Shown one piece after another: positions 46,901 through 52,899 of a stretch of DNA of 64,000 nucleotides. The stretch's first letter is position 1. Each line of letters opens with the position of its first letter. The position numbers are program-made. Origin of the DNA: Escherichia coli (GTDB lineage Bacteria > Pseudomonadota > Gammaproteobacteria > Enterobacterales > Enterobacteriaceae); the NCBI RefSeq assembly GCF_030384885.1, contig NZ_CP128613.1; one strand, given 5' to 3'.

Positions 46901-49900
46901 TCGTCTTTGCTCTCTTCATCAAGACTCACCCGCAGCCCGTTCTCAATGATGTTGATCGCTTTTGACAAAGAGACGCCTTTGCCTTGCTGATTGTTGTCCT
47001 GCATAAACAGGCGCGCTCTAACCAGTGCGCTCAGCACTCCATCAAATAGCATGGTGACCAGCTGCTGCTGGCTGGCGCTCATTACGGCGCTTTCGACGCC
47101 AATTTGTGCATAGGCCTGGGTGCCTTTTGCCGCGTACATGACCTGTCTCCCGATGAATATTGATTACTTGGAATTACTGTTGTTTTCGAACTGCTGCGTT
47201 AAGTAGCTGCTGGTGCTATTTAACGAGGTCATTAAAACGTCCAGTTGGGTAAATTGTTCTTTGTAGCGAGCGACCTGCGCATCAATGCGATCGCTGGCGG
47301 CGTTGTAGTCTTTAGTTAACTTATTCAGGGTCTTACTAACGCCATCGGTAGCGGCTTTAATAATGCCCGTTGTCGAAAGCCAACTGGTCAGGTTGCTGCC
47401 GATGGTGGTCGTGATGCCGGTTTTTTTACCATCGCCAACAATCAATGCACCTACGCCGCTGGCATCTTTTTTCAGTGCAGCGGTGAGTTTGTCGGCATCC
47501 AGTTCCAGTTTGCCATCGCTGGGATCGGTCGTGATACCAATCTGCGCCAACGTTTTATAGTTGGAAGAACTAACGGTATTACTCAGCATCGATTTCAACT
47601 GCGTCTGAATCGTCCGCAACGTGGAGTCGCCGAGCAGTGCGCCATTGCTAGAACTCTGGCTATCAGCCCCCGCATCTACGGCGGTGTATTTGGTCAGGCT
47701 GCTGAAGGTATCTATTAGCGAGTTATAGGCATTCACCCAGTCTTTAATTGCCGTTTGCGCTTTGGAGGTGTCCTGAGTGATGGTTAGCGTCTGGTTGCCC
47801 GTGGTGACATCGTTCAGGTTCAGGGTGATGTTTTCCAGCGCGTCGCTGATGGTGTTGCTGCTGTTCTCAATGGCGACGTTGTTGACCGTCAGCTGCGCAT
47901 TCTGGGCGGCGACCGAGACCTCCATGCCGTTGCTGCTGGCACTGGCGTCATAGCCCATAAAACTTTGTAGCGCATCATCACCGCTAACCGAGAGCGTCAT
48001 CGCATTGTCAAGGCCGGTGTCATTTGATGTGACTGACAGACGATATTCACCGTTACCCACGTTAATGATGCTTGCGCTTACGCCTGCTTTTGCGTTGTTG
48101 ATAGCATCACGGATCCCGCTTAACGATGAGTTAGCCGCGCTGATATCAATGGTAATCGGATCTTTGTCGCCGCCTTGTTGAATGGTGATTTTACTGTCGC
48201 TGGTGGCGATCGCCGTTTTCGTATCATCTCTGGTGGTGCGCGTGGTCAGGGTTTGCGCCTGCGCCAGATGGGTGACGCTGATGGTGTATTTCCCGGCGAT
48301 GGCGTTACCCGCGGTGGTGGCACTGAACGCGGTGGTGCTGCTGGTGGTGCTGGTGGCGGAAAAAAGATCGGCTTTAGACAATGCAGTATTGGCGGTCTGG
48401 AAAGTCGTCAGCGCGCTTTTCAGCGTACCGTAGGCGCTAAGTTTAGCGGTAAACGACGATTGCTGATTTGAAATAGGGGTTAGCGTCGCTTTTTGCGCGG
48501 CGGTGAGGCTATCGAGGATTGAACTTAAATCCAGACCTGACCCGACTCCCAGCGATGAAATACTTGCCATGCGATTTCCTTTTATCTTTCGACACGTAAA
48601 ACGAATACCGGGGTTATCGGCCTGAATTGCGCAAAGTTTACGTTTAATTGTTTTTTTTAATAGCGGGAATAAGGGGCAGAGAAAAGAGTATTTCGGCGAC
48701 TAACAAAAAATGGCTGTTTGTGAAAAAAATTCTAAAGGTTGTTTTACGACAGACGATAACAGGGTTGACGGCGATTGAGCCGACGGGTGGAAACCCAATA
48801 CGTAATCAACGACTTGCAATATAGGATAACGAATCATGGCACAAGTCATTAATACCAACAGCCTCTCGCTGATCACTCAAAATAATATCAACAAGAACCA
48901 GTCTGCGCTGTCGAGTTCTATCGAGCGTCTGTCTTCTGGCTTGCGTATTAACAGCGCGAAGGATGACGCAGCGGGTCAGGCGATTGCTAACCGTTTTACT
49001 TCTAATATTAAAGGCCTGACTCAGGCGGCCCGTAACGCCAACGACGGTATCTCCGTTGCGCAGACCACTGAAGGCGCGCTGTCCGAAATCAACAACAACT
49101 TACAGCGTATTCGTGAACTGACGGTTCAGGCCACTACAGGGACTAACTCCGATTCTGACCTGGACTCCATCCAGGACGAAATCAAATCCCGTCTCGACGA
49201 AATTGACCGCGTATCCGGCCAGACCCAGTTCAACGGCGTGAACGTACTGGCAAAAGACGGTTCGATGAAAATTCAGGTTGGTGCGAATGACGGCCAGACT
49301 ATCACTATTGATCTGAAGAAAATTGACTCTGATACGCTGGGGCTGAATGGGTTTAACGTTAACGGCAAAGGTACTATTGCGAACAAAGCTGCTACAGTCA
49401 GCGATCTGACCGCTGCTGGTGCAACGGGAACAGGTCCTTATGCTGTGACCACAAACAATACAGCTCTCAGCGCTAGCGATGCACTGTCTCGCCTGAAAAC
49501 CGGAGATACAGTTACTACTACTGGCTCGAGTGCTGCGACCTATACTTATGATGCGGCTAAAGGGAACTTCACCACTCAAGCAACAGTTGCAGATGGTGAT
49601 GTTGTTAACTTTGCAAATACTCTGAAACCAGCGGCTGGCACTACTGCATCAGGTGTTTATACTCGTAGTACTGGTGATGTGAAGTTTGATGTAGATGCTA
49701 ATGGCGATGTGACCATCGGTGGTAAAGCCGCGTACCTGGACGCCACTGGTAACCTATCTACAAACAACGCCGGCATTGCATCTTCAGCGAAATTGTCCGA
49801 TCTGTTTGCTAGCGGTAGTACTTTAGCGACAACTGGTTCTATCCAGCTGTCTGGCACAACTTATAACTTTGGTGCTGCGGCAACTTCTGGCGTAACCTAC

Positions 49901-52899
49901 ACCAAAACGGTAAGTGCTGATACTGTTCTGAGCACAGTACAGAGTGCTGCAACGGCTAACACAGCAGTTACTGGTGCGACAATTAAGTATAATACAGGTA
50001 TTCAGTCTGCAACTGCGTCTTTCGGTGGTGCGAATACTAATGGTGCTGGTAATTCGAATGACACCTATACTGATGCAGACAAAGAGCTCACCACAACCGC
50101 ATCTTACACTATCAACTACAACGTCGATAAGGATACCGGTACAGTAACTGTAGCTTCAAATGGCGCAGGTGCAACTGGTAAATTTGCAGCTACTGTTGGG
50201 GCACAGGCTTATGTTAACTCTACAGGTAAACTGACCACTGAAACCACCAGTGCAGGCACTGCAACCAAAGATCCTCTGGCTGCCCTGGACGACGCTATCA
50301 GCTCCATCGACAAATTCCGTTCATCCCTGGGTGCTATCCAGAACCGTCTGGATTCTGCGGTGACTAACCTGAACAACACCACTACCAACCTGTCTGAAGC
50401 GCAGTCCCGTATTCAGGACGCCGACTATGCGACCGAAGTGTCCAACATGTCGAAAGCGCAGATTATCCAGCAGGCCGGTAACTCCGTGCTGGCAAAAGCC
50501 AACCAGGTACCGCAGCAGGTTCTGTCTCTGCTGCAGGGTTAATCGTCTGAATGCCTCTCAAACCCCGCCACCGGCGGGGTTTTTTCTGTCCGCAATTTAC
50601 CGGTAACCCCCAAATAACCCCTCATTTCACCCACTAATCGTCCGATTAAAAACCCTGCAGAAACGGATAATCATGCCGATAACTCATATAACGCAGGGCT
50701 GTTTATCGTGAATTCACTCTATACCGCTGAAGGTGTAATGGATAAACACTCGCTGTGGCAGCGTTATGTCCCGCTGGTGCGTCACGAAGCATTGCGCCTG
50801 CAGGTTCGACTGCCCGCGAGCGTGGAACTTGACGATCTGCTACAGGCGGGCGGCATTGGGTTACTTAATGCCGTCGAACGCTATGACGCCCTACAAGGAA
50901 CGGCATTTACAACTTACGCAGTGCAGCGTATCCGTGGCGCTATGCTGGATGAACTTCGCAGCCGTGACTGGGTGCCGCGCAGCGTGCGACGCAACGCGCG
51001 TGAAGTGGCACAGGCAATAGGGCAACTGGAGCAGGAACTTGGCCGCAACGCCACGGAAACTGAGGTAGCGGAACGTTTAGGGATCGATATTGCCGACTAT
51101 CGCCAAATGTTGCTCGACACCAATAACAGCCAGCTCTTCTCCTACGATGAGTGGCGCGAAGAGCACGGCGATAGCATCGAACTGGTTACTGATGATCATC
51201 AGCGAGAAAACCCGCTACAACAACTGCTGGACAGTAATCTGCGCCAGCGGGTGATGGAAGCCATCGAAACGTTGCCGGAGCGCGAAAAACTGGTATTAAC
51301 CCTCTATTACCAGGAAGAGCTGAATCTTAAAGAGATTGGCGCGGTGCTGGAGGTCGGGGAATCGCGGGTCAGTCAGTTACACAGCCAGGCCATTAAACGG
51401 TTACGCACTAAACTGGGTAAGTTATAACGTCAGTAAATGCCGCACTTTAATTTTGACTACCAGGAGTTCTTAATGATGGTGCAGCACCTGAAAAGACGGC
51501 CATTAAGCCGCTATCTTAAAGACTTTAAACACAGCCAGACCCATTGCGCGCATTGCCGTAAATTACTCGATCGCATTACCCTCGTTCGCGACGGCAAAAT
51601 AGTGAATAAAATCGAGATTTCCCGCCTGGACACGCTGCTTGATGAAAATGGCTGGCAAGTGGAACAAAAATCATGGGCGGCATTGTGCCGATTCTGCGGT
51701 GATTTACATTGCAAAACACAGAGTGATTTTTTCGATATTATCGGCTTTAAGCAATTTCTTTTTGAGCAAACTGAAATGAGCCCAGGTACGGTGCGTGAAT
51801 ATGTCGTTCGTCTGCGCCGTTTGGGGAATCATCTACACGAGCAAAATATTTCCCTCGAACAGCTGCAGGGTGGTTTCCTTGATGAAATCCTCGCCCCGTG
51901 GCTGCCCACCACCAGCACCAACAATTACCGCATCGCATTACGGAAGTATCAACACTATCAGCGTCAAACGTGTACCGGACTTGTGCAGAAATCCTCCAGC
52001 CTGCCTGCTTCTGATATATATTAAATAAGAATAAGATGTAGCGGAGTTGTTTTTGTGTTTACAAACAATGGCTCTACACTGCAAACAGACATAACAACAT
52101 TCGGGGTGAATATGAAATTAGCACATCTGGGACGTCAGGCATTGATGGGTGTGATGGCCGTGGCGCTGGTTGCGGGCATGAGCGTTAAAAGTTTTGCAGA
52201 TGAAGGTCTGCTTAATAAAGTTAAAGAGCGCGGTACGCTGCTCGTAGGGCTGGAAGGAACTTATCCGCCGTTCAGTTTTCAGGGGGATGACGGCAAATTA
52301 ACCGGTTTTGAAGTGGAATTCGCCCAACAGCTGGCAAAACATCTTGGCGTTGAGGCGTCACTAAAACCGACCAAATGGGACGGTATGCTGGCGTCGCTGG
52401 ACTCTAAACGCATTGATGTGGTGATTAACCAGGTCACTATTTCTGACGAGCGCAAGAAAAAATACGATTTCTCTACCCCGTACACCATTTCCGGTATTCA
52501 GGCGCTGGTGAAAAAAGGTAACGAAGGCAGCATTAAAACGGCTGATGATCTGAAAGGCAAAAAAGTGGGTGTCGGTCTGGGCACCAACTATGAAGAGTGG
52601 CTGCGCCAAAATGTTCAGGGCGTCGATGTGCGTACCTATGATGATGACCCGACCAAATATCAGGATCTGCGCGTAGGCCGTATTGATGCGATCCTCGTTG
52701 ACCGTCTGGCTGCGCTGGATCTGGTGAAGAAAACCAACGATACGCTGGCAGTAACCGGTGAAGCATTCTCCCGTCAGGAGTCTGGCGTAGCGCTGCGTAA
52801 AGGAAATGAAGACCTGCTGAAAGCGGTGAATGATGCAATTGCGGAAATGCAAAAAGATGGCACTCTGCAAGCCCTTTCTGAAAAATGGTTTGGTGCTGA

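Follow-up and report, generated by a model that had tools for sequence, protein, structure and literature searches.

Here, we report that the flagellin gene in a 64,000-nucleotide stretch of Escherichia coli DNA (contig NZ_CP128613.1; hereafter, the window) is an fliC allele of flagellar antigen type H45. We put the probability of the whole explanation at about 0.93: the gene would be the chromosomal fliC of strain 2013C-4282, an stx1a-positive human isolate of cryptic clade I, it would stand in the canonical locus, and its product would bear the H45 antigen on outer domains of the D2-D3-D4 class. The first-pass annotation had called a non-K-12 H antigen and left the serotype unassigned, and H45 supplies the missing name. 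The H45 fliC allele is already known and nothing about it is new here; the window now has an H type, which is of little importance beyond correct annotation. Two small testable leads, not discoveries, came with it, namely the probable sheath class of H45 and a missing FliX region.

Gene and protein

An intact plus-strand open reading frame for a 568-aa flagellin, placed at 48836-50542 by the first-pass annotation, was found at exactly that position. The gene and its segments were as follows (evidence in parentheses).

48836..50542, plus strand: fliC coding sequence, H45 flagellin allele, 568 aa plus stop, ATG start (ORF scan, Pfam, NCBIfam)
48836..49360, plus strand: N-terminal conserved segment, aa 1-175, predicted D0/D1 filament core (K-12/H7 identity, Flagellin_N, model helices)
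49361..50266, plus strand: central variable region, aa 176-477, predicted H45-specific outer domains (BLASTP, composition, model)
49748..49774, plus strand: GNLSTNNAG, aa 305-313, equivalent of the H7 D4 dimer site (alignments to H7)
49811..50251, plus strand: PF12445 "FliC" domain, aa 326-472, inside the central region (Pfam, E 1.2e-21)
50267..50539, plus strand: C-terminal conserved segment, aa 478-568, predicted D1/D0 filament core (K-12/H7 identity, Flagellin_C)

The translated protein was 100% identical to WP_000079725.1 (strain 2013C-4282). Pfam placed Flagellin_N (PF00669) at residues 5-140 (E 1.6e-46; 158.3 bits, cut-off 26.6) and Flagellin_C (PF00700) at residues 482-566 (E 1.9e-31; 108.6 bits, cut-off 23), and the NCBIfam model NF005953 ("FliC/FljB family flagellin") covered residues 1-568 with 815 bits (cut-off, 619). 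A pseudogene or a frame open by chance was ruled out, because the frame was intact and 905 public contigs carry the identical protein.

The AlphaFold model (mean pLDDT, 81.9) had long helices at residues 5-101 and 106-129 and a beta-rich central region with pLDDT mostly 80-95. The D0/D1 terminal helices would assemble into the core of the filament, as they do in all enterobacterial flagellins, and the central 300 residues are predicted to fold as surface-exposed outer domains bearing H45 specificity. The centre had been described as rich in Thr, Ala, Gly and Ser over roughly 300 residues, and composition bore this out: residues 176-470 held 20.0% T, 17.3% A, 11.5% G and 8.8% S (sum, 57.6%), against 36.3% for the four together in both protein ends combined. 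The stretch LQRIRELTVQ was present at residues 89-98, within the N-terminal segment. The central region had also been named as a target of host immunity, which is apt for antibody (the H antigen) but not for innate recognition by TLR5, which maps to the conserved D1 region of flagellin.

Locus and predicted expression

The gene stood in the canonical fliC locus, with fliD-fliS-fliT divergent from it and fliA-fliZ downstream.

46364-46729: fliT, after fliS (ORF scan, RefSeq annotation)
46729-47139: fliS, after fliD (ORF scan, RefSeq annotation)
47164..48570, minus strand: fliD (filament cap), divergent from fliC (ORF scan, RefSeq annotation)
48733..48759, plus strand: sigma-28 (FliA) class 3 promoter-like site, TAAAGGTT-N11-GACGATAA (read from the sequence)
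50560..50589, plus strand: fliC intrinsic terminator, a 10-bp G+C-rich stem (50560-50582) followed by a T run (sequence)
50708..51427, plus strand: fliA (sigma-28), downstream of fliC (ORF scan, annotation)

The promoter-like site lay 77 nt upstream of the fliC start codon and matched TAAAGTTT-N11-GCCGATAA, which we take to be the sigma-28 consensus, the site being judged by consensus alone. The terminator sequence was conserved with that of K-12 fliC/FliX. Given the canonical locus, the sigma-28-type promoter and the intrinsic terminator, fliC would be expected to show class 3 flagellar expression.

The gene might instead be intact but silent, either cryptic as in Shigella or masked by another flagellin locus (of the flkA, fllA, flmA or flnA type) lying outside the 64-kb window. 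Near-identical 568-aa proteins are indeed annotated in the non-motile Shigella boydii, S. dysenteriae and S. flexneri, but we consider silence improbable for this strain. The ORF is intact and carries the expression signals described above, and the flagellar genes in the window (fliA, fliZ, fliD, fliS, fliT and fliE-fliR) are all annotated intact. Moreover, one clade I isolate was serotyped O1:H45 (PMC10100065), and H45 flagella are therefore expressed in this lineage; against a masking locus, the published typing of 2013C-4282 reports H45 alone (PMC10100065).

Assignment to H45

The window was 100% identical to NZ_CP027579.1 (E. coli 2013C-4282), a genome to which SerotypeFinder-style in silico typing gave the type OG9:H45 (PMC10100065, Table S1). 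The fliC of a second genome, named O126:H45 (MIN10), shared 97.5% identity with the window allele at the DNA level and 99.3% at the protein level, with 4 amino-acid differences over the whole protein and 14 nucleotide differences in the 906-nt centre. When the central part of the gene (49376-50246) was searched against 5,426 complete E. coli genomes with blastn, 85 matched, all at >=98.3% identity, among them O126:H45 MIN10, IAI39, CE10 and MP1; no intermediate or other central allele was found in that set. Across the 85 genomes, H45 fliC was 97.5-100% identical in DNA to the window allele. The E. coli H45 flagellin agrees with the gene described here in length (1707 nt, 568 aa) and locus, and the differences are allelic variation only. 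Together, these data argue that the flagellin allele is probably of type H45, a label taken from a published in silico call and one serotype-named genome.

A different name would be needed if the protein were an unnamed new H type, or another named H type resembling H45. The RefSeq annotation of the protein says only "FliC/FljB family flagellin," and the H45 label comes from published typing and a named genome; the H45 type-strain fliC to which in silico schemes refer is AY250023.1 (strain 4106-54; PMC4753304). Nonetheless, an identical genome was typed H45 under the standard in silico scheme, the protein of the O126:H45-named genome differs by less than 1%, and the 85 carrier genomes lie within 1.7% of each other with nothing in between them and other alleles. 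An unnamed type would also be an implausible oversight, because the exact protein occurs on so many public contigs. We regard such a renaming as very unlikely.

H45 therefore remains the preferred assignment. The genotypes met most often among cryptic clade I isolates are OG9:H45 and ONT:H45 (PMC10100065), a pattern to which this strain conforms, and H typing has epidemiological use for this stx1a-positive lineage.

Comparison with K-12

The K-12 (H48) flagellin, given in the first-pass annotation as 498 aa, has that length in the translation of MG1655 fliC (b1923; filament core structure 8CXM), compared with 568 aa here. Identity to K-12 per 20-residue block was 0.90-1.00 over residues 1-160 and 0.55 over 161-180; it fell to 0.05-0.40, in a heavily gapped alignment, over 181-480 and rose again to 0.85-1.00 from 481 onward. 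The conserved ends had been drawn at about 1-170 and 470-568; these boundaries were right to within about 10 residues, because identity to K-12 changes at 161-180 and at 481. The centre was likewise correctly described as having no counterpart in K-12: BLASTP of the two centres alone gave no significant similarity (best E, 1.9), and the Pfam families differed, with Flagellin_D3 and FLIC_barrel but no PF12445 in the K-12 centre and PF12445 in the H45 centre. Central DNA found no match in K-12-like genomes, even with blastn at word size 11. What the two have in common is the D0/D1 core ends, the chromosomal locus, its neighbours, the terminator and the fliA promoter region.

Hence, although the first ~160 and last ~88 residues scarcely differ from those of K-12 FliC, the idea that this is a K-12-type (H48) flagellin whose length was mistaken was refuted by protein alignment, by BLASTP of the centres and by blastn of the central DNA, and its chance of being right is negligible. 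The lack of a counterpart to the centre holds for K-12; other E. coli H types, such as H7, have a clear colinear counterpart.

Outer domains

By sequence, the best solved relative was the filament of H7, a serotype different from H45 (7SN4; full-length match, E 3.9e-202). This flagellin of enterohemorrhagic E. coli O157:H7 was 69.5% identical overall and colinear over the full length. The ends were 100% identical over most of the N-terminal segment and from aa 481 onward, whereas identity between the centres, also colinear, was 15-60% in blocks of 20 residues, for the most part 30-55%. The H7 protein is longer (585 aa against 568), with central indels that include 13-residue and 11-residue H7 insertions. 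Structural searches with the AlphaFold model gave 7SN4, 9N59, 7SN7 and 7SQD as top Foldseek matches (E 1e-54 to 1e-36), so that 7SN4 led by fold as well as by sequence. Whole-chain TM-scores to sheath-forming flagellins were only 0.35-0.56, a weaker measure than per-domain comparison, and low values are to be expected because the protein has several domains joined by flexible hinges.

The O157:H7 flagellin is of the outer-domain-sheath type, with domains D2-D3-D4, and its residues N319 and N323 act in sheath formation and motility (PMC8931119). A homologous D2-D3-D4 outer-domain region was found in H45 by alignment to 7SN4 and by Foldseek, and in the H45 motif GNLSTNNAG, which aligned with GNLTTNNAG of H7, N306 and N310 stand at the positions of N319 and N323 in H7. 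Because these D4 dimer-site asparagines are kept, H45 is probably a member of the sheath-forming D2-D3-D4 class (H7, H6, Achromobacter). Its outer domains would then be of that class and not of the Salmonella/K-12 D2-D3 class, and its filament would probably carry an outer-domain sheath, as the retained motif suggests.

In the analysis of Hu and Reeves, H45 fell in an atypical cluster, distant from the main flagellin clusters of E. coli (PMC7018530); this placement fits awkwardly with the clear homology to H7.

Relatives outside E. coli

A search for central-domain homologues, which the low-complexity composition confined to 8,000 candidates, returned at least 17 proteins, mostly fragments, with H7 and H6 absent from the matches listed. 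Among those listed, the closest central domain outside E. coli and Shigella belonged to a flagellin of Atlantibacter (formerly Escherichia) hermannii (P0018; 65% identity over 100% of the central region), and Achromobacter-named flagellins were 41-45% identical to the H45 central domain. PF12445 was also present in P0018 and in a metagenome (JGI) flagellin (P0021). An exhaustive search of representatives, in which a 559-aa protein (P0033) was 44% identical, gave only 27 clusters at E <=1e-3, a count that understates diversity, because flagellins sharing ends collapse into few 50% clusters, and so is no measure of rarity.

The ends of the A. hermannii protein were of its own host-species type, for example LLTQNNLNKSQSS as opposed to LITQNNINKNQSA in E. 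coli. Since the conserved ends follow the host species, the comparison suggests that the central cassette and the conserved ends have separate histories.

Short 3' untranslated region

The fliC 3' untranslated region (UTR) was only ~47 nt long and, compared with that of K-12 fliC, is missing a ~153-nt insert containing a REP element. In K-12, this REP-containing stretch makes up most of the FliX sRNA. Rfam, applied to 46000-53000 at E up to 1, showed no member of the FliX family and gave just two matches, both sub-threshold and due to chance, at the terminator. The short 3' UTR junction occurred in 25 of the 5,426 complete E. coli genomes. It was rejected as a feature exclusive to H45, because several of these genomes carry a different annotation and a 96% match, which makes them probably of other H types. 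If the loss is true, strains with the short 3' UTR would lack the negative feedback that FliX exerts on genes for flagella and ribosomal proteins.

Possible exchange between lineages

The H45 cassette may have been transferred recently between cryptic clade I and E. coli sensu stricto, carrying with it the REP-less 3' UTR that is missing nearly all of FliX; we consider this proposal less likely than not. Against MP1, the window matched at every one of the 906 central nucleotides and differed at only ~3 sites across the 1.5 kb spanning 49361 to ~50900, and the flanks of this near-identical tract were ~2% diverged from MP1. Relative to the H45 alleles of E. coli sensu stricto, the 5' conserved part of the gene (nt 135-525) was 3.4-4% diverged and the central region 0-1.5%.

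The open reading frame at 48836..50542 (+) is ATG-initiated and encodes 568 aa (ORF listing of the window), exactly where the first-pass annotation had placed a flagellin of that length, and the NCBIfam model NF005953 (FliC/FljB family flagellin; 815 bits, cut-off 619) covered the whole protein. The neighbors of fliC are canonical (upstream, divergent fliD, fliS, and fliT; downstream, fliA, fliZ, tcyJ, and dcyD). Its Pfam domains, and its identity per 20-residue block to the K-12 flagellin (H48 type; MG1655 b1923, 498 aa, the length given in that annotation), were as follows.

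Residues 5-140: Flagellin_N (E value, 1.6e-46)
Residues 326-472: PF12445, "FliC" (E value, 1.2e-21)
Residues 482-566: Flagellin_C (E value, 1.9e-31)
Residues 1-160: identity to K-12, 0.90-1.00
Residues 161-180: identity to K-12, 0.55
Residues 181-480: identity to K-12, 0.05-0.40, with numerous gaps
Residues 481-568: identity to K-12, 0.85-1.00

The ends are thus conserved, as had been proposed, and the central 295 residues are indeed rich in Thr, Ala, Gly, and Ser (57.6%, versus 36.3% in the ends). The further claim that the center has no counterpart in K-12 is supported at the levels of both sequence and domain family, because the two central regions alone gave no significant BLASTP match (best E value, 1.9) and their Pfam families differ (Flagellin_D3 and FLIC_barrel in K-12, PF12445 here). 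A K-12-type flagellin with a mistaken length was rejected on these dissimilar centers and on length (568 versus 498 aa).

The fliC DNA was 100% identical to that of E. coli 2013C-4282 (chromosome NZ_CP027579.1; record position minus 503,608 gives window position), as were window bases 2279-25000. This strain came from human stool in the USA (record). It belongs to Escherichia cryptic clade I, has a complete genome sequence, is stx1 positive with a Stx1a phage, and was serotyped in silico as OG9 (O17/O44/O73/O77/O106):H45 (PMC10100065). Within clade I, the most frequent genotypes are OG9:H45 and ONT:H45, and serology assigned one isolate to O1:H45 (PMC10100065). The fliC of a RefSeq genome named "O126:H45 strain MIN10" had 97.5% DNA and 99.3% protein identity (4 substitutions). 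By sequence identity, with the label taken from the published in silico call and the serotype-named MIN10 genome, the H type is H45, for which AY250023.1 is the type-strain fliC reference (PMC4753304). Sensitive blastn with the central region (49376-50246) matched 85 of 5,426 complete E. coli genomes, each at 98.3% or above, and found no intermediate alleles among these genomes between 98.3% and the detection floor; judged by this search, the central allele class is discrete, and its assignment is unambiguous provided that the H45 label is right. The first-pass annotation was correct in observation and interpretation, and the H type that it left unassigned is H45. The gene, the allele, the matching genome, and the serotype call were all public already.

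The exact protein (WP_000079725.1) was present on 905 contigs; the 90% cluster that contains it numbers 297 members, some of them from Shigella boydii, S. dysenteriae, and S. flexneri. The near-identical H45-type flagellins annotated in these Shigella species (P0006, P0007, P0009, and P0015 of that cluster) are 560-568 aa long; all three species are classically non-motile, and such genes would be cryptic fliC-H45.

The best solved sequence relative was the EHEC O157:H7 filament (PDB 7SN4; E value, 3.9e-202; 69.5% identity overall), which aligned colinearly over the full length, with 0.15-0.60 identity per 20-residue block in the center (mostly 0.30-0.55). An AlphaFold2 model (19-sequence input alignment) had a mean pLDDT of 81.9, with the beta-rich center mostly at 80-95; its best Foldseek matches were filaments of H7 (7SN4), Azotobacter vinelandii (9N59), EPEC H6 (7SN7), and Achromobacter (7SQD), with E values of 1e-54 to 1e-36 and whole-chain TM-scores of 0.35-0.56, lowered by inter-domain hinges. 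Outer domains of the H7 class form dimers or tetramers that build an outer-domain sheath, and substitutions of N319 and N323 in the H7 D4 dimer site break up this sheath and reduce motility (Kreutzberger et al., PMC8931119). The equivalent site reads GNLSTNNAG (aa 305-313) here and GNLTTNNAG in H7, and both asparagines are kept, as N306 and N310. From the H7 homology, the fold matches, and the retained asparagines, we infer that H45 flagellin probably forms such a sheath; the predicted sheath is a minor lead. The closest central domain found outside E. coli/Shigella was in an Atlantibacter hermannii flagellin (65% identity over 100% of the region), followed by Achromobacter-named proteins (41-45%) and a 559-aa library representative (44%). 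At the level of sequence similarity, these matches show that the H45 center has ordinary proteobacterial relatives, despite its atypical place in global flagellin clustering (Hu and Reeves, PMC7018530).

Compared with the H45 allele of the E. coli sensu stricto strain MP1, fliC had 21 nucleotide differences, 19 of them in nt 135-525 and none in the 906 central nucleotides; under a uniform spread, none of 21 falling in 906 of 1,707 nt has a chance of ~(801/1707)^21, or roughly 1e-7. Over the 7.7 kb compared, a low-divergence tract with ~3 differences ran from 49361 to ~50900 (~1.5 kb); the flanks were 1.5-2.3% diverged and the 5' part of fliC 3.6%. Such a pattern is a classic mark of horizontal exchange and points to a recent exchange of the H45 determinant across the clade I/sensu stricto boundary, probably with breakpoints in the conserved ends. 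Exchange of fliC H determinants with such breakpoints is known behavior.

Expression signals and the fliC 3' region comprised the following.

48733-48759: TAAAGGTT-N11-GACGATAA, which we take to be a good sigma-28 consensus match and putative promoter
50543-50589: fliC 3' untranslated region (UTR), without the REP-containing stretch
50560-50589: fliC terminator hairpin (10-bp G+C-rich stem and T run)
50543-50707: fliC-fliA intergenic region

With this promoter-like site, the terminator, and flagellar genes annotated as intact throughout (fliE through fliR, fliD, fliS, fliT, fliA, and fliZ), fliC would be expected to be expressed. The fliC-fliA spacing is 165 nt in the window, MP1, and IAI39 and ~320 nt in K-12, MIN10, and Z0117EC0005, a relative in clade I. 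The difference is a ~153-nt stretch with REP-like palindromes directly after the stop codon, present in the latter three and absent from the window, whose 3' UTR keeps essentially only the terminator hairpin. In K-12, this stretch makes up most of FliX (b4827), a 195-nt sigma-28-dependent sRNA; FliX-S (roughly 100 nt) also contains a REP (PMC10578931). Strains MP1, IAI39, and CE10 belong to the 25 complete E. coli genomes (of 5,426) with the short junction, which was not exclusive to H45 among them; the missing FliX region is a minor lead.

Other annotated features of the window were as follows.

672-1211: two phage-integrase fragments beside tRNA-Asn
9728-15767: region with an islet carrying a degraded IS5 transposase, another transposase with a frameshift, and four hypothetical proteins, of which the one at 10827-12203 has 458 aa
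37471-41910: genes between fliE and yedK, namely emrE, ybcL, ybcM, an IS200/IS605 tnpA (truncated), and an insQ/TnpB-family gene for an RNA-guided endonuclease (intact)

Since emrE, ybcL, and ybcM presumably lie within the DLP12 prophage in K-12, their location between fliE and yedK here looks like a relocated or remnant islet. An annotated ompC porin gene (14574-15767) adjoins the transposase-bearing islet in 9728-15767, away from the usual ompC locus. The integrase fragments are apparently the scar of an integrated element. Window bases 1-2,278 lay outside the main megablast alignment to NZ_CP027579.1 and matched as a separate place.
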